A stretch of 62,859 nucleotides of DNA, the filler included, from Rhabdomonas costata (Eukaryota): NCBI GenBank assembly GCA_019059605.1. It is 18 parts of 18 records of this genome, joined end to end, with 100 filler letters (N's around TTAATTAATTAA, not from the genome) between each part and the next. Parts side by side here need not be neighbours in the genome. Positions count along the whole stretch, not along the records: positions 24,510 to 27,913 come from JAHMHO010000899.1; 17 more parts are not named here. The stretch is one strand, 5' to 3'. How positions within the stretch are numbered: the first letter of the stretch is position 1; each line of letters starts with the position of its first letter. The notes beneath the pieces are model-generated. The model saw only the letters and a list, made by a program, of their open reading frames with translations, was not told the origin of the DNA and did not search any database. This document shows positions 3,401-62,600 of this stretch, piece after piece. The translations under genes were made by a program, and so were the position numbers.

Positions 3401-3500
3401 NNNNNNNNNNNNNNNNNNNNNNNNNNNNNNNNNNNNNNNNNNNNTTAATTAATTAANNNNNNNNNNNNNNNNNNNNNNNNNNNNNNNNNNNNNNNNNNNN
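3401..3500. other. Artificial contig linker (N-run, TTAATTAATTAA, N-run); first of 17
   Basis: The same 100-nt spacer with stops in all six frames recurs about every 3.5 kb, starting near 6902, 10403, 13909, 17409, 20911, 24410, 27914, 31409, 34909, 38409, 41904, 45398, 48893, 52382, 55870 and 59369. Confidence 0.99.
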
Positions 3501-6100: not shown

Positions 6101-7278
6101 TTTCGCGCAGAACAACGGGAGATCTGAGGAATGACAAATTGAGAGGCTCTTGTCATGCAATGTACCGCCAACAAACGTCACTGGTGCATTGCAAACAAAT
6201 GAGATACAGACAAAAACTGAACAAAGAAAATGAAGGATTACAACAATGGTGGGAGCTGGTGGAACTTTCCGAAAAGGCAGCGCGAGCTCATCAGGAACAG
6301 CACAGCCATCCCGCGCTCGAACGCCATGGGAAAACCCGAAGGGAGCCACGGAAGGGGACATGGGGAAGCACACTGGAAAGAGTGGGAGCGGGAGAACGCA
6401 CGTGTGCCAAGACAAAAACTAGAGTTGCATGTGCAGGCCCCGGGGCCAAACAGTGGAAAAGTATGAAACACAAGCACCAAAACGGGTATGCAGGAAAAAA
6501 TGGTGTCACATACGGGCAGGGAAAAGTGACCCACTTCTCGCCACCCTAGGACGAAGTGTGTGGAGATTAAAACTCATGGGACGCGGGCGATGTGGTCGCT
6601 GGCACTACACCCGAGCATGCCCTCTGCATCAGACAGCACTCGCTCGCCCATTGCGCCTATTGAAAAAATTGAAAAACTGAAAGCTTACTACAAGAGCACA
6701 AACCCAGTGCTCCACACGTGCACGTGCAGCAAAGGCAAAGCACATTTGACGCTCAGCGGGGCAGTGGTGATGCCGGACACCTGGGAAGTAGCAGCTCCGG
6801 CACACCACGGAAATGCACCAGCGACTTTGACTCTGATTACCCTGTGCACTTCTCCTCCATGCCCAAAATTCCAACTCACACAGTGATAAAGAAAAAAAAC
6901 ANNNNNNNNNNNNNNNNNNNNNNNNNNNNNNNNNNNNNNNNNNNNTTAATTAATTAANNNNNNNNNNNNNNNNNNNNNNNNNNNNNNNNNNNNNNNNNNN
7001 NTTCCCAATCTGAAGTAAATCTTTGGAGGGGCGTCGTCTTGCAGTTGACAACAGAGGTTCCCGTGAACTAATGCATGTTGTGGGTTGTGGGAGCAGAGAT
7101 GCACAACGTGGTTCGTGATCGTAGATCGCCATTCGTTCTTGTGATTGGCAATCCTTCTGGCTTTCTCGCTGCAACCCCGAAAATGCAGGCTTTGCTCAAC
7201 ACTATGGGCAATCCATCTGAGAAACAGTTCAAAGGTTGTAAGGCTCGACAACGGGATATGAAAGGGTGAAGGGGCTAC

Positions 7279-9761
7279 CTTGTAAACTATGTTGCGGAAC
7301 GCCAGCACGTACTTCTCCGGAACACTGGCTCCATCCAGCGCAAACCCAGGACCGGCCGCTCCAAGTGCAGGAGCATGGGATGGAGTCCACGTCGGCGACG
7401 CGTGCGGAGTGCCCGGAATTGAATGAGAGGAACCCACCTCAGGAAATGGTCCGAGCACAGCCCCGCACGCTGGCCCAGGCGCCAGCTTCAAAGCGGAACA
7501 GTCCCAGGAATCGTTCAGCGAAGCGCACCAACGGGGTAACGTCTGTGAGCCACCAAGCGACTGAGTACCAAGAGCCATAGGAGGAGCGCCAATGGGCCCT
7601 GGCGAGCCGCAACAAGGAGCCGAGACCGCTGGAAGTGCACCGCCCAAGTCCACGACATGCTCGTGCAGTCCCTCGCAGGGCTTTCCGGAGGTCGTGCTCT
7701 CGGGGGCGGCGCGAAAGACCTCAGGGAACCGGACATATTTCACCCCAAGAAAGAACGCGAAGACCATGAGCAGGAAGAACAGGCTGGTGAATAGGAAGCA
7801 CAGCCACTTGTACGGGGCCCATGTGATGAAGGTCTGAGCCTCCATGAAGGCCTGGCCATAAGTCAGGGAGCAAGGGTCCTCGGGGTGCACGAGCTGGCCG
7901 TGGAGGGGGGACAGGAACTCGTTGGCCACCATGGCGGAGTAGGTGTAGGACATGGGGGAGCTCCAGTAGATCCAGATGTACCAGGGAGGGATATCCCCTC
8001 TGGGGATCATGTACCCCGAGAAAAGCACGTAGATGTACACCACGAACGCGGAGGCCCCCTTACAGGCAATCCCGCAGGCAGCGTGACTCAACAACCAAGG
8101 AAAATGGACAACGCCCCAACGATGCCAGCACCCGTACTCGTAATTGCATTGGGGGGGGGGGGCTTTAAACGTTTAACGGTGTTTGAGGTTTTAGGACTTT
8201 GTAGATCGATTGGGACATCATTTGCTTTTAGGAGCGGTCGGGCGTCAAACCCAATACAACAGCCCTGCCATTGGGGCGAAGAGTTGGGTGAGTCGCACGG
8301 ATAAGGGGGCGGCGTCTACTTACACGAGGGTTTCCTGGCTGAGAAGTGGCGATGAAAACCAGAAAGTGAGACCCTGTTTGAATGCATCGGTCACCCAACG
8401 ACGGCGAACACGGAACAAACCAAGGGTAATGGAGGAGAGTGGGCTGGAGTGCACATTAGACCCTGGATATCGACCTGAAAAGTTCCCTAGGAGAGCGACA
8501 AATATGGCATGCCACAGGGATTCCATGCCATTTCTCAGGTATTTTGCACAGAAAAAGACGTGCGGGAGAAGGCTGCAAATTCGGTGCATCTCGGGAAGAG
8601 GCACACCAAGGCGACAGACTGGCTTGGCGCGATCATCGAGATGAACTGGTACCATCCGTTGAGGCAGAGGTCGTTGATGAAGAGGACAAGCACGCAGAAG
8701 AAATAGTTTCCCGCGTACGGAGCAAGCCCTGCATGGTAAGGGGTGCGGCACAGAAAAGTCTCACTCACTGGACCAGAGCTCCCTCAAAGTCACCTCGGTA
8801 CCTTGTAGTTCAAGAAACTTGTGCAAAGCTTGGTACCCGAGGGTAGGGTAGGAGTTCACTTGTGGCTGGCATACCATTTTTCTTGAGCATGTGGAGGGGA
8901 GTGCGTTCCGTCCCGTCCGCGTTTCCTCGATTTCTACGTTACAGACCCGAAGAAACAATAGTTTAGGATGTACAGCAGAGAGCGTATGCGTATGCAGAGG
9001 AGGTGCTTCTGTGTTGCGGCCGCTCCCCAGTACGAGCCTGAGAGTACTGTGACGGGAGAGGGGGCTGCTTTCACTATTGAGGTGGGTGGTCCAGTGCTTC
9101 CGCATTTTTATTACCATTCCTGACTGAAAACCTGAAAAAACTCGGCTGAGGACACCCCAGACAAAATGGCAGTGGAGAACCACCCAACCCGCCACAACCT
9201 ATGACTCAAGTCGGTCGTATCACTGACATGACGTGGCGTAAAACTCCCGATCTTTCATTATCTCGGTGTACACAAGCGTTTGGATGTTCAGCAGAAGTTC
9301 AATGCAACCACACAGAGTGCAGCAGGGAGCAAAAAGGGAAACAGCCAGTTGCACTGCGGCGATAAGATGGAAAAACGGTGAAAAAAGGGAGAAACTAGTA
9401 AATCGAAATAGAAAAGAAGTGTGGGAAGGTGGGGGACTACACATGCCATTTTGGTTTTTTTACCAAAGCACCAAAATGTTCGAATTGTTTCACCTTTTCC
9501 GGTGAGATGAGTGGTCAGGAGATGCTGGGAGAGTACCTCCCGGTTCTCCTTTCGCCAGTCCAGCCATGTGTCGTGACGATCATGATTCAGAACGTAATCG
9601 AGAAAGTCAGCACTAGTTACCGCGCGAAAAGAGAAATTCACCCCTGATCGAGAATGAGCACAAAAAGTAGTCACCCCCCGCCCCCTCCCAAACAAAAGCA
9701 CACCACTAAGCCAGTATATGATGGTGGTGAAGACAACAGTATCCAGAAGTGCTTGCGGAGC
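7279..9761 (-). CDS. ABCG/PDR-type ABC transporter, internal fragment (TMD1 to start of NBD2)
   Basis: Approximate exons 9761-9704 (APQALLDTVVFTTIIYWLSG), 8728-8607 (LAPYAGNYFFCVLVLF) and 8058-7279 (LFSGYMIPRGDIPPWYIWIYWSSPMSYTYSAMVANEF...LAFRNIVYK); all GT-AG. Confidence 0.92.
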
Positions 9762-14008: not shown

Positions 14009-14955
14009 CTTGTCATCATGGAACCACCACCGAGTCTGTTTCGGGCTCTGCCCTGTGGCGCGGCACTTGCTGACGTAGGCGTCGTTGTCTGCGGGGTGGT
14101 GGGCCACGTCCCGAGTGGCGCTGCTGAGCATGGAGTGGATCGAGAGGCAGACCGCGCTGATCGTGAGGGCGGGGGACCACTTGTCGTACAGGATGTCCAT
14201 ACAGATGTGGCCGTTACTGTAGATGTGCTGGTGCTGCGGGATGTCTGAGCCCACGAAGATCACCTCGGGGCTCTCAATGGGGTACTGCGGGGCAAACTTG
14301 AACTGCAGCTGAAACTGGTGCCTAGGAAGCAACCAGGGCGTGCATACACAACCAGGTGCCCATGAAAACATCGCCTCTTTACTCATCCCCAAGCAAGGCA
14401 AAAAAGACGCCTTTGTTGGCCGCTCAAAGCTGACCTACTGAAATCAGCATTAACGATGAAGTATGCTCATATGTCGGAGTATGTTACCAAAATAGATGCC
14501 TTTAACGCATCGCCGTAAACAATGAAAGTGTCTGAAGGAAGAAAAGTGAACGCTGAAACGGTGATTCTGGAGTCCACGAAAAACCGAATGCCGCTTACCA
14601 ACAAATGTCAACAGTAATCAGAGGTACTTGAAACTTACGTCATCGGAATCAGTAACACCGAAGTCCGAAGTCCAGCTTCCGATGGCGTACTTTCAATGAA
14701 ATCTTACCGCACCACATAATGCACAGCAACTGAACTTGTGCACTGAAGTTCCCATCTTAGAAAAAATAATGTGCACGTGACCCTGTCACTCCCCCATTTT
14801 CCCTACAACCCTGAGTAGATCGTGCCCGAGGGGAAGGTCAAGTTCACCACCCAGAGCATCCGGTCTGGAGACACCGTGTGGATTCGTACAAACGGGGACT
14901 CCGGGCTGGAGAGCATCCGCTCCTGCTCCTTCTGCAGCCGCTTCGACGCGGCCAT
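14009..14955 (-). CDS. UBE2W: Ubiquitin-conjugating enzyme E2 W (UBE2W/UBC16-like), 2 exons; stop lies just beyond the contig end
   Basis: Exon 14955-14810 (MAASKRLQKE...GTIYSG) and exon 14321-14009 (FKFAPQYPIESPEV..HQHIYSNGHICMDIL..WSPAL..SMLSS..TRWWFHDDK). HIYSNGHIC and WWFHDD are characteristic. Phase-2 GT-AG intron. Confidence 0.93.
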
Positions 14956-21418: not shown

Positions 21419-24227
21419 CTGGCCCTGGCGGTCCAAATCAACCACGACAAAGTCCACAATCGGACCCAAGTTGGTGAAGCTGTCGACGGGCTCCACTGTG
21501 GGGGGCCCACCTGGGGCAGAGCACAAATAGAAAGCGCATGCGTAGGAAACGACATGGTCTCAGGCAGGGAAGACATTGACTGCGCTGTCTAAGATGCAAG
21601 ACAATGATCTTTAAAATAAATCAAAAAGGGTGACTGTGTCCCCCTACAAAAAAGCTAAATATGTCTGTTAGCGGGGGAGTGGGGGGACGGGCAGCAGATT
21701 TGATTATGGCCATGTAACAGTCACTTACTCTCGTGGGCAAGGGTGGGATACCCATTCAGGACAACGTCCCAGTGTTGGGCATAGGGAGGAGTTTCTTTTG
21801 GGCGGTTTCCTCGGGCAGGCGGAGGGTCCCTGCCTGTTCTGTGGTGAGCCGCATGCTGAAAGCAGTGCTATGGGACCTTCTGCGCAAGCTTACCGGGGAA
21901 CCAAGCAGTGATGATGTGGGGTCGGAGCAAAAGCCACTCCCGGAGCCACACACCTGTGTCGGGGTGGGTCAGCCGAAGAAGCTGGGAGTCGGTGAAACAG
22001 CCCCCGACGAAGAGAAGCCCACTGCCCAGGTAGCACAGGCAGGACGGGATGACAGTCTGCAGACCAAGGGAAGCCAATTCAGGGCGAAGACGAGTTGAGT
22101 CAGGAGTATTAGGCCACCAACTCTGCCTTTGTTGGTTATCTGCGGGGAAATTTTATAGGAATGCGATCATTTAATGGCGCGGGTCTCGTTACAAGTGAGA
22201 ATAACAGCTGACGCGATAATTCTGCGAAAAACGGCCACTAGGTGAGATGTAATGACGCTTAAAACCCGTCTTAAGGTCCGGAAAATGCCTGAAATTTGCA
22301 CGTTCACTCGCCAACACGCGACGAAAATATGCCATAATACCGCCTTTTCCTGGTACGCGCGGATTCCTGTACCAACAGCCAGACTGTTGATTTCCTCACC
22401 AGACTTCTTGACCAGGAACATCGCCTGTCTGGCTGTTGGTACAGGAATCCGCGCGTACCAGGAAAATATGCCATAATACCGCCTTTTCCTGGTACGCGCG
22501 GATTCCTGTACCAACAGCCAGACTGTTGATTTCCTCACCAGACTTCTTGACCAGGAACATCGCCTGTCAGCTGAAAAAAACGTCCTTTAGTCCTCCTTAA
22601 GTGTACAGCCAAAAAAGGGTTGAAATGGCATGGCGCTGGTAAAGCACATCCGAATGGCACAGGAACGAGCTTCCGGAGGACACGTCTGGAAGGATTCTGA
22701 AGGAACCTCTGCAATGGTGGTGGTCTGCAAACTGACAGAGGCGTCCACTAGCTCCAAGGTCAGCAGGAAGAGCCGACCCAGCTCGTCGCCAAGAAGGAAC
22801 CTGCGGTGATAGCAGGGCGATGGGCGATATGCGAAAAACCAAGCTCACCATAATATCTGCTCCAGGTTGCAACGTCAGCGTGTGGTAGTTCAGTGTGCAG
22901 CATAATAAATAGCCGGAAGGGTGTACCAAGTGCCAGCCTTGTATGCACACATCTTGGTTTCGGTCTCGGTTGGTCGGTTCACGCGCGTGAAGTGCCATGA
23001 GAGGAAAAAATTATAGAAAAGTGAAAGAGAAAGATTGCAATGCAACAACCTTTGGGGACGCCAAAAATCGGAACCCATCAAGGTCGAGGGACAGAAAGCA
23101 TACCGGTGGGAATCCACGGCACAGCTGGCACGGATTTGGGCGGAGGTGTCGGCGCCAGAGCGCGTCCTCCAGCGCGTGGAACGGGTGCTGGAGCCGCTGT
23201 GGTAGGTCACCAACTCCTCCCCCACAATCAGAAGCCCTCCACAGGGAAGCGTGACCTGAAAAAACCCCAAGTGAGAATGTTAACTTTTGGAGTCAAGTTT
23301 CTGCACAGCGCTCCGACGGGTTTGCTCACTTAAGAAAGTACAAGACGGTGCACACTCAACAGTGAGTGACTGAATATTTTAGATACAGTCAAAATTCACA
23401 AAATTCACACTAGGAGCACACAGATAGATGACCCAAAGTACTGAGAATAAAACAAAAAAAAGCAACCGTCCGAACAGAATCATTCATGACCACCGTGCAA
23501 CAGGACCAAAAACAGGTAATTTTCAGTCACGGTCATGATGGTAACCCGCCCTACTGATGAAACCGACGGACCAGGAAGCTGTCAATGTCATATCCAAAAG
23601 AACAAAGCCGCGTGGTTCCAAGCGCGCACCGGCAAAAGCATGTTCGCAGTGCTCTCCACGTTGCTCTGCGAGAAGGGTCCGTCCAGCAGGTCCTTCTCCT
23701 CCACAGCAACGATGTAAGTGTTGGGGTGGCTGCAAAGGGACCATGGGTGGGCGCGCGGACGAGTTCAGTGAACTACCACTAAGAATTTGAAGGGGCGATC
23801 TCCTGAACAACCATAGAAAGCCCATATACAAGAAAGGAGGCGAGGTGCGACATGAAATGAGAGAATATTGGTAGGACAGTTCCCTAACAGGGCCGTTGGA
23901 AACCGGCCCACGCAGGCTGTTAGCCACGGGTGCTCGCGAGAGGTACCTTCGACTCCGACGCCCAGCGTTCCGCATTCGGCAACCTTCCTTCTGCCCTACA
24001 TGTGTGTAAGTGTGCTGTTGACGTGCCGGTTTCGCTTGCTGTCCTCAAAGAGCACAGCGATGATGTGGGGCCCCGAGGAAGCGCCCGAGGAGGACGAGGA
24101 TGAGGAGGAGGACGGCGCCCCGGGGGCCTCGAAGGCAGAGGTGGAGGACGCGCCCGAGGGGGTGTAGGCGTAGCCCCCAGACGCAAGCTTGACGTAGCAC
24201 ATGTCAATCAGCCGCAGCTCTTCAACT
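21419..24227 (-). CDS. DDB1: DNA damage-binding protein 1, internal fragment, 6 exons
   Basis: Exons encode RVEELRLIDMCYV..IAVLFED..RH; TYIVAVEEKDLLDGPFSQSNVESTANMLLP; VTLPCGGLLIVGEELVTY; RFLLGDELGRLFLL; TVIPSCLCYLGSGLLFVG..DSQLLRL; and SFTNLGPIVDFVVVDLDRQGQ, all colinear with DDB1. Confidence 0.95.
22323..22568. repeat. Direct-inverted-direct duplication inside a DDB1 intron
   Basis: 107-bp exact direct repeat (22323-22429 and 22462-22568) bridged by a 40-bp inverted copy (22427-22466 is the reverse complement of 22345-22384). Confidence 0.95.
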
Positions 24228-24509: not shown

Positions 24510-26889
24510 GGGGCTTCGTCTCACGGAGCAGGAAGTCCTCCAGCGCGGCGTCGCCCTGCTGCCGCCGCTCGTCGTAGGCTTCACACGTCAAGCCGGCGTG
24601 CCTGAGGGGGGGGTGGGTTTACAACTGTAGCGGAAGGAGAAACTCTTTTATGAGAATTAATGCAACCACACTAAATAGAGGGTCAGTGATCGGTTTGAGG
24701 ACAACAGTTCCCAAGGATATTTTTGGAAAACCAAAACGCGGCACTACCCTTCACTGTCCACGGTCCACGAGTAAATACGCCGAATACCTACAAGGAAATC
24801 ATGTACAAACCAAACCGCTATCCGAAGAGTACGCCACAGGCCAAATAAAGCATGACAACAGGGTCCAATGGGGGGCTGGCCCATTCCAGGGCACGCTGTG
24901 GGCAAAGCACGTCTTGCCCTTGCAGCTGTGACAGGTCATGATGGGCGCCTGGGCGCCGCTCTCGTGCAGCTGGCCAGAGCCACAGGTGGAGCTCGCCATG
25001 CACCACCGGAACTCCGGTTGGGCCTGCAGGAAGCCGTTCAGCGCCAGCCGATCGTACCTGCAGGCCACCCACCAACGCACCACAAGAAAAGAGAAAAGGA
25101 GCTAAGGGGCGAAAACAGCCCAACAGCACAACCTAATACTACTAGTGCTGCTGCTGCCGCCGCCACTGCTGCTATGCAGAGACCATCAACCTTCCACTCC
25201 GTACCGAAATGGAAGAACAACTTACGCGTCGACCCTTGTAAGGTGATGAACTCGATCAATGCAAGGAAAGCTGCGGAAAGCTGCTTTTTGTGGTGTGTGT
25301 GTGTGTGCACATGAGAGTGCAGATAACAGAGATCCTGAAGGCCCATTTAATTCATCCGACAGTGCCGTATGTCGAATACACAGGCACATGCCATGTCCAA
25401 CATTAACATGCCGCCTGCTGAACGACCCACGGAAATATTTTGATGGCAAGTGGCAAGTGAAAAGCGTACCGCTCGAAATCCGCTGCGGAGGCAGAGCGGC
25501 GGACGTCCTCGAAGCCCAGAGGTTTGCGGCAGCACGGGATGGGGCAGCGGACTGCAGTGGCCTGGCCTTTCTGGTTCAGCTCCTCTGAGGCAAACACACA
25601 CAAACACAAAAGAAGGCAGTGGATCGAAAGCCCAATCGTTTCCAAAATAAGGTTGAGAGGAGGCTCTCCGCCCACACAACCACCAAATGCGCTATTCGTG
25701 CGTCCCAAGGGAAGGCACGAACCTCCAATGAAAATCCGCCGGACAAGCTGCGGGCCGTTTGCGGGACACCCAGCCGCAACTGCATTCCATACCCTCCCAT
25801 CATTCCTCTTTCTCAAATTATTGCGATGGGAGGAAAAGCATACAAATATTCGCAGTTTTCATAGCCTTTCTCACTCAACGCTTTCCCTCCGAAGTTAGCA
25901 ATTTTATCGGGCGATGGGCATCACGAGCTTAGAGTGGGGAAGAGGGAATGGATTGAGAGGAGGTGGAGTGTGCCTGAGACGTGGCGCTGCAGGCAGGCCC
26001 TGCAAGTCCTTTCGGAGGGGTGCGCGCAGTGCCCCGGCACCGCGGGCAGGGGCTCCTCGTAGAGCTCCTCCGTGCAAATCACACAGCTGCCCACCACTGC
26101 ACCACTCTGAAAGAGAGAAAGACACAGCGCAGTGCAAGTCACAAAAACACCGCTCTGGGTGGGAGGGAAGAGGATCGGTTGGAGATCGAGGGGTGAGCCA
26201 TCCGCATCAAGTGGCCAATTATCGAGGGAAACCTTAGTGGTGGTGGGGTCAGCGACATTCTGGACAGAACAGAGGGGAAGAAGAGATCCCCCAATTCGCA
26301 AGTACTCCCACCCTCTTTCCTCATGGAATTTGCACGTGCCAGAAGCTGCACTAACCGGGCTCCTGGAAAGATCGCAGATTGCCAGAACTGTGCCCCGGAT
26401 ACATTTTGAAAATGTTTTGTGGCGACTATTTTCTTCAGATTTTCAGCAGTTTTCAATGAAAATTGCATATTACTCCATGGTAACCCTCCTGGATTATAGT
26501 TCGCCAAATTAATGAGGCCAACCGCACGAGATTCTTTGGCTCTTCATCGCTGAAGCCTTGTTTGCATGTGCCACAGATCTCCTACCCTCATACCCTGAGC
26601 CGACATTTACACTAACGTGGTATCCGCAACCATGGACCCACAACTCCACGCACAAAAACACCACAAGGAAGAGCGTGCTGCACTTAGGGATGCGGCACTC
26701 CGTGAGGGTGCGGCTGCCCTCCAGGAGCTTTCCCCCGAAGCCCAGCCTCTGTGGGGAGTCAGCCGATGGGGCCTCTTCTGCCCCTTCTCGCTGCGCCTGA
26801 GCCTTCGCCATGACGGCGCCGATGGTGTCCGTGGGCTCCACCGTGAGGGTCAGTGTCTTCCCCGTGGAGGTCGTCACGAAGACTTGCAT
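24510..26889 (-). CDS. RBR-type E3 ubiquitin ligase with N-terminal ubiquitin-like domain (Ubl-RING1-IBR), 3'-partial
   Basis: Exons 26889 to about 26662 (MQVFVTTSTGKTLTLTVEPTDTI..QRLGFGGKLLE..TL..KCSTLFLV), 26106-25974 (CVIC..CAH..CRACLQRH), 25584 to about 25470 (CPIPCC), about 25057-24887 (FRWC..CGSGQ..CHSCKGKTCFAHSVPW) and 24601-24510 (HAGLTC..ETKP). Confidence 0.9.
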
Positions 26890-27881
26890 GGGTTCTGTGT
26901 GCAGAACCAAAGGAAAGGGTGTGGTAGGTTTAGCCCACGAAAGGAAGAAGCCATCTTCGAAGCGACTGGTCTCGCATCTCATCCTCGTGCGAAAATAGGG
27001 TAGAGAAAACACACAAATAGCGTATAGCTTGACCAAAGGCTGCAGCACTTGGGGCATTCGAGCCCACTCCGGTGCCAGCACAAAGTACTTCTGGGTTCTG
27101 CCCTTAGGTAAACAGCTAAGCAGCGAAACTTTAGGTTCGCTGTACAGGCCCGCAAGGACCCAAAAAGGTCACGCCATGCCGCAGCTGTCCGTACAGATGC
27201 AGCCAGTGCTTTCAACTCAGGAGTACAGCCATCCCACCAAGCGCAACCCAACCGGCCAGGTTACCTCAAGTTAAAATCGAGTCCACTCAGCTCAGGAGTG
27301 CTACGCACACCACCAAGTATGGGCTCAACTGGCGATCGGGTCGCTGATGATGAGCGAATAGGGTGAGGAACAAACCCCAATGTGTGCCTATGTGTGCTGG
27401 AGGATGGGCGGGACAGAGCAGTGACCACCTGCACAGTTGTGTGTGGACCGGAACCAGAAACCTTTTAGTGGTGCCTCTCTCGTGTGCAGATTCTTTTTTT
27501 CCGAAAAAAGTCACTCCAGTGACTTCTTGCTTTGGCTTGCGCATATGCTTGTGGAAACTTGAAAATAACCACCACCGTAATAGTCCCCGTTTCTAGGTGA
27601 CCCCTGAAAACTGGGGCTACGCACTGGCCCCCCCCCCTTTTCACTTTGGCGTAGCGGCGCTATTCATACCGTGAGTGGCCATCGCTGCTAAGATGCTAGT
27701 GAAGCTGCTTACACCGCACACACACACACACACACGCACAGCCAGTACAGCAAACTCACAGAGTGGCTTCACAACCACAACCACCACCACACCACCACTC
27801 CCTCCTGTGGCAAACTTCGTCCCAACCGAATCCTTGCCGAAAACCCCCACCCACCTATAGGAAGTGGCCAGGCCAGCTCAA

Positions 27882-27882
<1 letters not shown>

Positions 27883-27913
<31 letters not shown>
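27883..27913 (+). repeat. (CT)n microsatellite at contig end
   Basis: About 15 CT units ending the contig. Confidence 0.9.
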
Positions 27914-30014: not shown

Positions 30015-30554
30015 TCACGCACTTCCCTTGAGGCAAGCATGCCATAGCTCTCCCAGAACATCGGGCCCAGAAAAGCTCAGGCCGTCCTTGGCGATCTTCC
30101 CGCCCCAAAACAGGGCTTTCTCCGCGACACGCTGCTCGAGGTGGACAAAGCGGACCCCATTCGCCACCATCTTTCGGCACGCAACCATTCTGGGGTCGGT
30201 CTGGTGGGCACGGAACTTCGCCTGCACAATGCCTTCCATCACCTCCCGGCGCTGGCGATACCACCGCTCCACATCCAGCTTGGCCCCAACCTTGGAGAAG
30301 GCGCCCTTCGTGCCGGCGCTCTTAGCCTTCGCGGGGTTGTCCCCCACATACGAGGATGACCCCATCTCGAACCGGTGGGCCTGCTCGGGCATGTTCGAGA
30401 ACAGCAGGAACTTCTGAGCCTGGAAGGCGTGTTCCGCGGTGGCATAGCGGCGGCCATTGTAGGAGAAAGGAGAGTGGGCGAAGTTTGACAGAAAATTCGC
30501 ATTGGGATCTGCGGACCTGGAGAAAAACGAGATCAGCTTGGGTCCTGAGGACAT
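30015..30554 (-). CDS. NADAR/YbiA-family protein, single exon
   Basis: 179 aa with FLSNFAHSPF...YATAEHAFQAQKF, PAKAKSAG, W...R.EVM..IVQAKF and FWGG...G.DVLGELW, following the NADAR motif order. Confidence 0.9.
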   Translation of the reverse strand: MSSGPKLISFFSRSADPNANFLSNFAHSPFSYNGRRYATAEHAFQAQKFLLFSNMPEQAHRFEMGSSSYVGDNPAKAKSAGTKGAFSKVGAKLDVERWYRQRREVMEGIVQAKFRAHQTDPRMVACRKMVANGVRFVHLEQRVAEKALFWGGKIAKDGLSFSGPDVLGELWHACLKGSA

Positions 30555-58058: not shown

Positions 58059-59672
58059 TTTTTTTTTTGCATTTCGCGGCGATTCCTCGCTCCTGCTTTC
58101 CGACCCTGATTTGCCTGGTAGGTAGTTGGCGCCAGGCACTTGGGATCAGCTTTCGTGCAGCTCGTGAATGGGGCAAATAAGCTGGCCGCACAGATGTTGC
58201 TCAGCAACGCTTTCGTGCGTCAGACGGAGCAGTGATCGGCTGCCGATCGACCTGCTCCATGCTCAAGATAGCAGGAATCCATGGGACCCTCGTTAGCCCT
58301 CCGTCCGTACCCCTGAGAAGGCCATATTTAAGGAAATCCTGCAAACGGCAGGAGGCAGAAGCGATGGCTGAGCTCTCACTAGCTGAATTCTCCGCGAAAC
58401 TAATGCAAGCTGCTGGCTCCCGCTCCGAGCCCCGAGTCAGAAGGGCAAGGCCAGTACTGTTTCGAGTGCACTGATGGGTTGTGGTTGCAAGGGAGATAAG
58501 AGCGATGCGAACTCGAACAGCCCTCAAAAACCTGCGGTGGTTTGGTAGTAATTATGCGCAATCCCCATTTTCTCAAAAGCAAAGCCCTCACGCGAACACG
58601 CACAGCAGCAGCACACACTTACAAGAGCTCTGAATCCCCAGGTCCTCCGCGGGTGAAGGAGGATAAGCCAAAAGCCGAAAATGGGGACAGCACCCGCCAA
58701 AAACCAAAATCGTCATTCGAAGGAAGCACCGTCAGAGAGACTGCAACAGCAACGGGAGAGAGGGCCGCGAGAGAGGCAGGAAACGAGGGAGAGAGGGCCA
58801 GAAGCCGAGAGGCGGGGAAAGAGGGTGGCGGGAATCAAGCACGGAGCATCCAGGGAGAACAGAGACGCAGAGCAGGAGAGGCCGACCGCAGAAAAGAGAC
58901 CCCCGACACTCCCAGGGGCGAGACATGAAAGCCGCAGCCGAAAGCAGGTGGAAGACGAGCACGTGTGCCCCAGGAGTGTGATGCTGGCACGGTATATCAT
59001 GCACCCGAGGGAGGAGCACCTAGAACAGACCCGCGTAGAGACGGACCCAGTGCCGGACCATCGAGCTTCGCAAGAAATCAAAGTCCTAATTCCAGGTCTA
59101 ACGGGAAGCCAAAGTATTCGCAGACGCACCAGGGCAAAGAGTCAGTGAGGCAGCCAAGCACCTTTCCCATCATCGCTCCGAACGCTGCTTTGTCTCTTGG
59201 ATTCCTTCCCTTCCCCCGCCAGACTCTGACCACCTCGTCAGTGGTGTTGTGGTGGACGCCCCATGCCTGGTGGACAGTCCCTTTTTTGAGCCCTCGCTGT
59301 GCAGTTTTCGGGAGCCCACGCCCCAGCAGGGGAGCTCGTGGAGCGACGAGAAGGCCGCCGCAGTGCAGNNNNNNNNNNNNNNNNNNNNNNNNNNNNNNNN
59401 NNNNNNNNNNNNTTAATTAATTAANNNNNNNNNNNNNNNNNNNNNNNNNNNNNNNNNNNNNNNNNNNNGTGGTGGTGTGTAGTGCATCGCAATGTTGGCA
59501 CAAAGCAATTGACAGAAGAAGAGAAAGGGAATCTGAATCAACTTCGAGGGCAAACTACGTGTGGTCACTTTGCGAAGAATGGGAGGCATAAAAAACGCAG
59601 CACCAGCACACTGACTCCTCACATAATTGAAATTCCAGCTTTGACATGATACATCGATACGCACGGACATGC

Positions 59673-62600
59673 CTTCTTTTGGATGTTGACTAGGAGGGTA
59701 TCGGCAATGAGCCGACAGTTGGCACGGACACGAGTCACGCTCTCCTTAAACTCGTCAACGATTTTCTGCACCTCGGCGCACTTCTTGCGGCAGTCCCTCA
59801 CGAAGTACTCCACGATACCCTTGGTGGACCAGTACAGTTTGTTGTTCCCTGCGTAAAAATCGCCCAAGGAAACCAAAAACCGGGGTCACTCGAGCACAAA
59901 CTCGATCGACAAACGCGACAGGGGCTTTGCGGCGATTACGGTTTTCAGTTTCGTACACCACAGAAGGTAATCCCGTAGAACCGCGCAAAAAAGGACTAGA
60001 TCACCAAATTACGCCTCCGCCCTCGGGGTAGATAGATGTATTGACCTACCTAGACAGCTCGACCTGCTACCGTCACCCTGAGTGAAGTATACATGCCATA
60101 CATAATACAACTAATTGTACTGTGGTGGTTGCGGTTCCAGCCTTTCGCTTTCCCTCCAGCAAAGGCCTCAAACCGCAAAAAGTTACATCGTCAGTGAAAC
60201 AACCAACCTGCACATGAAGTGGCGACATGAAAATGCTTCTGTTTCTTGAGTAACGATCGAAAAAAAAATCGAATGACAGACCCACCAATAAATCCTCAGC
60301 ACAACTGATAAAAGGAGAAAGAGAGCGGACCGGGGTTGATCTTTTTGTCCAGGAAGGCAATGCGCTCCGCGAACAGCCTACGTTCCTCGCTGCTCAGGCT
60401 GACGACGATGTTGTTGTAATCTCGCACAGCCAGGCGGACGTTCTCGCGGTACACCCGCAGCCTCTCCTCCTTTCCGCACAGCTCAACCGCGGCCGGCGGA
60501 AGCGTGAACCCCAGCCGCTCCCAGTATCGAACCTAAGCAATTGATTTCATTTGAGTTTTTTTTGGGGGAGGATCACTGCTACATGTTTTTGGATTTTTGG
60601 GGGGACTGGGGGGAGCGCCGCCGTTAGGCCAGAGCGTGGCTGAGCTGGGGACGCTCTCATTGTTTGACAATGTATACCGAACAATCTCCTGATGCCATCT
60701 TTCGAGAGCAGGGGTTGGAAAAAATGTTCCGGCACCCCCCTTGATGCTATCCGCCTGCTGTCGCATTGCCCTTAACGGCACTATAAAAAACACTTCAAAG
60801 TTGGTCAGGGGATGCTTCCGGTGCCGTAAGTTGTACTAATTTACGATTAAACTTTCATAAAGCGAGAACAAATATTGACACTACTTGGGAAATACTGAAT
60901 TCTAAATGACTACACTGAGTCTGAGCGCTGAGGGGGGAGAATAGCTCACCTCCTCGAAGACTTGCAGCAGGTCGTTGTGGAAGTTGCACTCCAGGGTCGG
61001 AATGCTGTTGGGCCCGGCGACCTTCACGATAAGGTTGGTCTCCAGCAGGGGCTGCAGGGTCTCCCCGATGCTGTCCTTCCAGTCGTTGTACGTGTTCATG
61101 ATGTACTGCACACAGGGAAGCATACGAAGAAAGAGCGCAGTGCCAGCAAAGAGAAAAGTGTCTGTCCACTTGGGCGCCTGCCCACCGACTGCAGACAGGT
61201 TCAGGTGCAGGGGGCTCCAAAGATCAAGTGACGCAAATTTATTTGAAAAATGGAAATACAGAAAAAAGGGGACCGTCATGAAACAACGGAGAAATGAAAG
61301 AGAACCCAACCAGTGCGTCGTTGCCGGAAGGATGTCTTCACTTGCCTCACGGCTCCCGAGAGCATGAACAACGCTGACCCACCATACTGACCGCAAGATT
61401 TGCACGAAATATGAGCGCGTCATGCATAATGCACGGAGCAGTTCGCACGTGCGAACTGGGAGAGAAAAAAGGTTCGACGTTTGGCAACACGTCACGGGGG
61501 GGGGACGGTGCCTGCTCCAGGGCACTGTGAAGGGACTTGTAGGTAGCCAGGGCCTCAGTCTTTTCGGCAGACTCCGAGAGGTAGTACGCCACCTCCAGCA
61601 GCCTCTGGTCGCGCTCGATCCGCACCTTGAAGTTGTTCGCCCAGATCGCCCGACCTGAGATAAAGAGAGAGAGAGAGAAATTGAGTGGTGAGTGGCGTCC
61701 ATGTCCCAGGAATGAGCTTTCATTCCGACCTCGACGGTGGGTCGTCGCTATCATTGTCGGTCCCCTTCTTCCCTATTCGAGAAAGCTTTTGGGCCACAAG
61801 CTCACCCCGTGGTCAACACACTGTCCGACACATGCATCACAGTGTTTTTGGGGTTTTATTATGTCTAAAATCCAGTCTAGGCTGGACGTCACGCTCGCGC
61901 GTTAACAATCATTAGCGTTAACAAAAATTCGCGAGCAAACCGGCGGCCTTCGGGTGAAACCACTCCACAGGGGGATCCGTCTTGCGCTTGGCAAAGTCGT
62001 TCTTGATTTGGTTCAGCTCAGCATTGAACAGCTTGTAGACATCCACGGTCTTGCGCTGCACCGCGCTGTGCACAAAAACACAACACTGGCACCACACTGA
62101 TCATCACACATCGAATAACAGAGTGGTTTCGCGTCACTGAGTGTAAAAGCTATTTTCGGTTGTACAGTTGACAAGTCCGCCTTTGTTGTTCCCCCTCTTT
62201 TTCCTTGGGAAAGGCGAAAGGAATACGCTGTCACAAGATAGATATGGATACAAGCAAGTAAACAGGAAGCCCTCTGGAGCAGCTGGTCACTTACCAGCAC
62301 ATTATAATGTAACCATATGAATCAAAGCACCGACCCACAAGGTTGAGGGAAGGTGCTGGGCAAAGGCCATGTTTAAACGCAAAAAAGCATAGAACTCCAC
62401 AGGGGATGGGGATGGGTGAAAAGTTTGGGTGGGAGCCAACCGCTTAATGTTCTCTCGCTTTGCCAGAAAGGAGAAGGCCTCCAGCATCTCCACCCCTACA
62501 AAAACGGACAAAGCCATTTGAATGGATCCTGAGACGTTTGAAATCGGTGACATCGCTGCAGAGCAATCACATCTGCGCCTTTGTTCGAAATGCCAGCCTG

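Follow-up and report, generated by a model that had tools for sequence, protein, structure and literature searches.

Introns are removed in euglenids by two parallel systems, and for the nonconventional system no trans-acting factor is known to us. Nonconventional introns of Euglena agilis and E. gracilis are described by the code N3-CDG ... CH'G-N5-6/R, in which the two motifs are paired (PMC12501133). For E. gracilis, their consensus has been given as CCAGG at +3 to +7 and CCTG at -9 to -6, with pairing of the termini, and the conventional introns of the same species have GTGTG at the donor and, ahead of CAG, a C-rich tract (PMC11170887). Euglenid introns of which only one border is canonical have also been described (PMC4770533). 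Elsewhere, GA-AG introns form a known minor U2-type class, with examples in human FGFR genes, the copepod Eurytemora affinis and Oikopleura dioica (PMC7072748), and GC-AG and GA-AG introns have been tabulated jointly, with large percentages in some of the compared genomes (PMC7789003). The intron considered here is the fourth of a gene for an RBR-type E3 ubiquitin ligase with a putative ubiquitin-like (Ubl) domain. It lies on the minus strand at 24602..24886 of a stretch of DNA of 62,859 bases, referred to below as the window. A functional IBR zinc finger requires the join of ...CCCTG to GCAC... in this gene, and the intron therefore ends GA..AG (or GG..CA or AA..GG).

On the minus strand, exon 4 ends with CAC AGC GTG CCC TG (24900-24887) and is followed by GAATGG (24886-24881); beyond the exon end at 24887 the sequence runs GAATGGGCCAGCC. 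The last 12 nucleotides (nt) of the intron, CCCCCCCCTCAG, end at 24602, and the downstream exon reads G CAC GCC GGC TTG ACG TGT from 24601. The junction can slide over three G's, which gives the registers 24886/24602 (GA..AG), 24887/24603 (GG..CA) and 24885/24601 (AA..GG), and the GA donor is the one register with an AG acceptor. Joined at this point, the product would read CCCTGGCAC, and no other join yields HSVPWHAGLTC. A sequence-only reading of the locus had already placed an intron of 285 nt between these exon ends, and its coordinates and length hold. The GA donor (or shifted AA..GG form) that it proposed is exactly the junction required by homology; taken as a whole, its interpretation is supported in part.

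The junction was evaluated with a hidden Markov model built from 45 aligned homologs, which was used to score every in-frame, stop-free donor/acceptor pair (n = 8192) with donors at 24990-24741 and acceptors at 24720-24541. The GA junction and its two slid registers occupy the top of the ranking, all with 111.3 bits. The best of the 55 GC-AG pairs, with donor 24880 and acceptor 24602, reaches 103.2 bits and inserts Asn-Gly between Trp and His (W-N-G-H). Another GC-AG solution, with donor 24892, deletes Pro-Trp and scores 96.5 bits. The best of the 32 GT-AG pairs scores 95.9 bits, the best AT-AC pair 93.5 bits, and read-through, with the intron retained, 78.4 bits. The sequence-only reading had held that Trp and His cannot be made adjacent with any GT or GC donor. 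No GT or GC pair indeed equals the GA junction, and the Pro-Trp-deleting option that it named exists, but the second GC option at 24880, which keeps Trp and adds Asn-Gly, had been overlooked.

When the IBR exon (exon 4) was searched against longer proteins, a single match was returned among 3 candidates, EukProt RCo006828 (P0003, 248 amino acids), with full coverage at 79% identity (E 2.6e-23). The RCo prefix denotes the Rhabdomonas costata protein set (PMC8219788). Because this closest protein comes from R. costata, the host is probably a euglenid, in keeping with the direction in which the sequence-only reading had pointed, and a dinoflagellate origin is not supported by homology. Exons 4 and 5 align with P0003 without gaps (..CFTHSVPWHTDLTC..). 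The spacing C-x2-[HC]-x3-[WFM]-H-x4-C is fixed in all 45 homologs, with no residue between the aromatic position and His. An IBR ending of the form W-H-x-G-x-x-C had been assumed earlier; His and the final Cys are invariant and Trp is present in 43 of the 45, but the Gly is not conserved (the closest homolog reads WHTDLTC). The zinc knuckle was also sought by regular expression in a wider set of 146 proteins, namely P0003 and 145 representatives. The motif matched in 126 of them and failed in 20; among its 133 occurrences, 122 have the spacing x4-H-x4-C and 117 have W directly before H. In the Pfam IBR profile, P0003 residues 92-155 cover positions 2-65 without insertions or deletions, and exon 4 covers positions 3-56 of 65, so that nine positions are left, V-P-W-H-A-G-L-T-C. 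The final zinc site of the domain, C-x2-[CH]-x4-H-x4-C, is completed only by the GA junction.

The window is composed of 18 pieces of 3,388-3,406 bases that are not contiguous. They are separated by linkers consisting of 44 N, TTAATTAATTAA and 44 N (at 3401-3500, 6902-7001, ... 59369-59468), across which features are not to be read. A scan of the window with Rfam gave 0 matches to small nuclear RNAs, including U1. The RBR gene lies on the minus strand of the piece 24510-27913, and its 3' part is cut at 24510. The following features were assigned to it, with the segments of P0003 located by tblastn:

26662..26889, minus strand: exon 1, with the start codon (26889-26887) and the ubiquitin-like domain (Pfam ubiquitin family, E 1.7e-11)
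26107..26661, minus strand: intron 1, putatively GT..AG, with a GTGTTT donor, a ctttcag acceptor and phase 0 on both sides; no homolog spans the junction
25974..26106, minus strand: exon 2, first half of RING1 (..CVICTEE..CRACLQRHVS), with P0003 residues 14-53 at 26094-25975 and a weak Pfam zf-RING_2 match
25585..25973, minus strand: intron 2, GC..AG (GCACAC...GCCTCAG); the junction slides 5 nt, with a CTCAG direct repeat at both junctions
25470..25584, minus strand: exon 3, second half of RING1 (EELNQKGQATAVRCPIPCCRKPLGFEDVRR..FER), with P0003 residues 47-93 at 25606-25466
25058..25469, minus strand: intron 3, GT..AG (GTACGC...CCTGCAG), with ends able to pair
24887..25057, minus strand: exon 4, IBR domain to ..CFAHSVP plus TG, translation YDRLALNGFLQAQPEFRWCMASSTCGSGQLHESGAQAPIMTCHSCKGKTCFAHSVP, Pfam IBR E 7.9e-10, with P0003 residues 92-150 at 25059-24883
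24602..24886, minus strand: intron 4, 285 nt, GAATGG...CCCACCCCCCCCTCAG, placed by the junction scan and homologs
24880..24881, minus strand: boundary of the competing GC donor (GC at 24880-24879, context GG/GCCAGC), 6 bases downstream of the GA donor
24510..24601, minus strand: exon 5, G plus HAGLTCEAYDERRQQGDAALEDFLLRETKP, supplying the rest of the IBR zinc site and truncated where the piece ends, with P0003 residues H150-179 at 24600-24511

The four exons matched by P0003 are colinear on the minus strand and open, without frameshifts or stops, and every zinc ligand kept by homologs is kept in them. Their identity to P0003 is 78-79% in exon 4 and 53-62% in the others. Exon 1 would end at a GT donor, either GTGTTT at 26661 or GTGGTG at 26664, and it presumably belongs to the RBR gene, as judged by strand, order and frame only; a BLASTP comparison of this exon with the Ubl-RBR homolog P0018 was not significant. 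In order, the introns have GT-AG (putative), GC-AG, GT-AG and GA-AG ends. Introns 2 and 3 served as controls for the junction scan. For intron 3, the top score of 110.0 bits includes the GT-AG register (3619 candidates). For intron 2, a GC-AG pair is best with 54.3 bits compared with 41.5 for the best GT-AG pair (4324 candidates), which is 12.8 bits lower and would delete Val-Ser-Glu; the GC-AG join HVS/EEL agrees with HVSEEM in P0003. In the representative protein library nothing exceeds 61% identity to the IBR exon, and a metagenome scan for orthologous loci gave only one locus, with a 10-residue match. A (CT)15 microsatellite, (AG)15 on the gene strand, occupies 27884-27913 at the very end of the piece and may be the reason why the contig stops there.

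With non-canonical borders but neither the nonconventional code nor a terminal helix, intron 4 stands on the boundary between the two euglenid systems. It shares a border other than GT/GC, a slidable junction and a downstream purine with the nonconventional and intermediate introns of euglenids (Milanowski 2014/2016; Gao 2024; Nomura 2025). Its borders differ from GT/GC-AG in all three registers, and in the AG-acceptor register its 5' end at 24886-24885 is GA, not GT or GC. One canonical border, as in intron 4, is also a property of the intermediate/nonconventional subtype, but here it is the 3' border, whereas in the euglenid literature it is usually the 5' one (PMC4770533). Nonconventional introns are defined by a CAG...CTG motif and a terminal helix, both of which intron 4 lacks. 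C[AGT]G is absent from +4 to +6, where the three registers read TGG, ATG or GGG and the only CAG is found at +9 to +11, and the complementary CTG/CCG is absent from the last 12 nt. The duplex between the first and last 40 nt has an energy of -8.8 kcal/mol compared with -11.6 +/- 3.1 kcal/mol for shuffled sequences, 82% of 500 shuffles being as good. For the whole intron with its flanks, the folding z-score is -0.22, with 39 of 100 shuffled sequences folding equally well or better. No perfect inverted repeat is longer than 4 nt, whereas the seven accepted nonconventional introns of R. costata have inverted repeats of 9-12 bp near their ends (PMC8219788, Table S6). With CCCACCCCCCCCTCAG/G, the 3' end follows the pattern of Euglena conventional introns, a C-rich tract and CAG (PMC11170887).

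The 5' end can be compared with seven other donors readable in the window: three in the RBR gene (GTGTTT, GCACAC, GTACGC), three in a dynein gene (GTTTGC, GTGAGC, GTCCGC) and one in an ABC transporter gene (GTGTGC). G is found at -1 in all seven and at +5 in five, and GAATGG shares both. Within this set of seven donors only, its context matches in the G's at -1, +1 and +5 and differs at +2 and +6.

Several other possibilities were considered for the locus. U12-type donors have the consensus [GA]TATCCTT, and a U12-type intron was rejected, since the donor is GAATGGGCC. Inspection by eye for a twintron, or for recursive splicing that recreates GT, revealed no plausible inner intron. A 7-bp exon-exon helix (GCGUGCC/GGCACGC) is equalled by 22-24% of random or shuffled pairs and is therefore not above chance, and a repeated or mobile element was discarded, as intron 4 has no other copy in the window. 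In intron 3, the duplex of the first and last 40 nt reaches -21.6 kcal/mol, with 3.8% of shuffles as good; such terminal pairing despite GT..AG ends resembles conventional/intermediate introns described in Euglena.

Because the nonconventional signature is lacking and the 3' end looks conventional, the sequence gives about an even chance that intron 4 is a genuine intron of the Ubl-RBR E3 ubiquitin-ligase gene handled by the U2-type spliceosome with A at +2. Under this interpretation, the GA junction would be used in vivo and the spliceosome would cut the intron, accepting A instead of T or C at +2. Recognition would proceed via G at -1, +1 and +5 and via the C-rich polypyrimidine tract followed by CAG/G. 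The mRNA would join ...CCCTG to GCAC..., giving the IBR zinc finger, and intron 4 would stand apart from the structured, nonconventional type of euglenid intron. Judged from the sequence, GA-AG at this position would be a splice-site exception of a rare type that has been seen before, in a lineage known for non-canonical introns.

The nearest precedent is found in the intron tables of R. costata, which contain 4549 GTAG and 4912 CTAC, 308 GCAG and 326 CTGC, and 90 GAAG and 95 CTTC entries (PMC8219788). Since non-canonical rows are listed twice, once in Table S2 (11,418 data rows) and again in Table S3 (1,164), and five of them also in Table S5, the GA/AG entries correspond to about 90 introns, a share of 0.8% overall and of 7.7% within the non-canonical set. 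GA/AG accounts for 5 of the 26 read-verified noncanonical introns with homologs in Table S5, and the class goes unmentioned in the available sections of the main text (PMC8219788; Soukal et al. 2021). These predicted introns are transcript-mapped and have the same ends as intron 4, the likeness being one of boundary dinucleotides only. The U2-type GA-AG class has in common with intron 4 its GA and AG ends (5' and 3', respectively), the A at +3 and a polypyrimidine tract of the ordinary kind. It is known from outside the euglenids, whereas the host of intron 4 is a euglenozoan and the junction is known here from sequence. A full-text literature search, with results judged by title and abstract, yielded no description of a GA-AG class in euglenids. 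In FGFR genes a second splice site is situated six bases away, and a nearby canonical site assists the use of GA (PMC7072748). Intron 4 has a GC site six bases downstream of its GA site, which by analogy recalls this assistance and may serve as a lead. Dinoflagellates have GT, GC and GA donors, and in their introns a G follows the acceptor AG. Intron 4 shares the GA donor and the G after AG (24601), but the closest homolog of the RBR gene is euglenid and GT predominates among the other donors in the window.

A number of observations weigh against a spliceosomal GA-AG intron. GAATGG fits the local donor pattern (G at -1, +1 and +5, C at +6) less well than the GC donor at 24880 (GG/GCCAGC), and the R. 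costata tables contain about 7 times as many GC-AG as GA-AG introns (634 vs about 90). GA/AG, with 185 occurrences, is the commonest of the one-letter variants but only about twice as frequent as the others (82-139 occurrences each), and part of the class may therefore be noise. The seven R. costata introns accepted as nonconventional include no GA-AG case in the tables of that study (PMC8219788). Spacings other than x4 (x1, x3, x5, x6, x7 and x9) occur in 11 of the 133 knuckle occurrences, in distant relatives; some of these sit in second, Rcat-like motifs, and both x5 cases add the residue before W. The terminal 10 nt, tested as by Gao et al., pair at -2.9 kcal/mol, a non-discriminating value that lies within the range of nonconventional introns and also within that of many GT-AG introns. 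Neither protein search recovered the product of the gene itself, and a wrong base at 24885 or a silent paralogue may account for the GA.

Among the other explanations, a euglenid nonconventional (or intermediate/nonconventional) intron, excised by structure-recognising, non-spliceosomal machinery and ending in AG by accident, is unlikely, although it ranks first of the four. It would suit a probably euglenid host, the one canonical border known from this group, and borders that are non-canonical, slidable and followed by a purine. In E. agilis, moreover, nonconventional introns are the majority, and the CDG/CH'G code is reported to be missing from 38.8% of them (PMC12501133). The missing CAG/CTG-type motif, end-to-end pairing no better than chance, inverted repeats far shorter than those of the seven R. 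costata cases and a 3' end of conventional pattern all speak against it. Slightly less probable again is a GC-AG intron of 279 nt that uses donor 24880 with the same acceptor and leaves Asn-Gly between Trp and His. This solution is the second-best class in the scan, its donor context is common to other donors of the window, GC-AG makes up 634 of the 11,418 introns predicted in R. costata, and intron 2 of the same gene is also GC-AG. It nevertheless places an insertion inside the last zinc-binding loop. On the protein evidence the GA junction is estimated to be favoured over it by about an order of magnitude or better, because the score is 8.1 bits lower, a residue between W and H is present in none of the 45 homologs, and W directly precedes H in all 117 W-containing occurrences with spacing x3-x5.

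The two remaining explanations concern the base at 24885 and the state of the gene. An A produced by a base-calling or assembly error, or representing a minor allele, with GTATGG as the true donor of an ordinary GT-AG intron, has a low probability. T at +2 would produce a donor resembling GTGTGC and GTTTGC in the window, and the assembly is fragmented, the window being built of short contigs. An error at one specific base is, however, a priori far rarer than the approximately 0.8% of predicted introns that are GA-AG in R. costata, and the flanking sequence has no signs of low quality. The slimmest chance is assigned to a silent or decaying paralogue, in which the donor mutated from GT to GA and the intron is no longer removed. 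An identical protein was found in neither search, and the closest expressed protein, with only 79% identity in exon 4 and 53-62% in the other exons, differs as a paralogue would. The intact reading frames and zinc ligands of the four exons argue against decay, as do the other three introns, which retain usable ends.

The machinery that removes intron 4 would reveal how strictly the euglenid spliceosome reads +2, and also what share of the "nonconventional" introns tallied in surveys consists of sloppy spliceosomal sites. It is possible, though doubtful, that the Rhabdomonas lineage has a third recurrent class of introns, namely unstructured GA-AG introns with conventional 3' ends that are removed by a spliceosome tolerating A at +2. 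Such a class may comprise about 0.4-0.8% of introns, unremarked in the published tables. By analogy, it would parallel dinoflagellates, Eurytemora and Oikopleura, perhaps via a variant U1 or relaxed U6 pairing. As a single candidate case, intron 4 has modest weight, which would increase if GA-AG proved to be a distinct spliceosomal class in the lineage. For annotation, gene predictors limited to GT/GC-AG would break the IBR zinc finger of the RBR gene.

Other pieces of the window contain further genes and repeats. At 60331-62065 (minus strand), four exons encode a dynein heavy chain of the axonemal inner-arm I1 beta type (Pfam DHC_N1), with best PDB matches to DNAH2 and Chlamydomonas 8glv_Co. 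Its a/b and c/d junctions are GT-AG, the latter being exact against PDB chain 8glv_Co residues 682/683. At the b/c junction, the donor may be either GC (CAG/GCACCG) or a GT situated 21 nt downstream. PDB searches gave no match for dynein exon b, and none for an open reading frame of 281 amino acids. An apparently single-exon gene at 30018-30554 (minus strand) encodes a NADAR-domain protein of 179 amino acids (Pfam E 2.1e-11), with one match in the protein library at 36% identity and no close relative. At 22323-22568, near a fragment matching the RSE1/DDB1/CPSF1 beta-propeller, two 100% identical direct repeats of 107 nt, 139 nt apart, are interleaved with inverted repeats of 47 nt and 94% complementarity. 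Two exons at 7003-8783 (minus strand) encode an ABC-2-type transporter membrane domain and are separated by a GT-AG intron whose donor, GTGTGC, agrees with the Euglena GTGTG consensus. Finally, a ubiquitin-conjugating enzyme exon (UQ_con, E 1.7e-19) is located at 14009-14434 (minus strand), where it is cut by the piece end.

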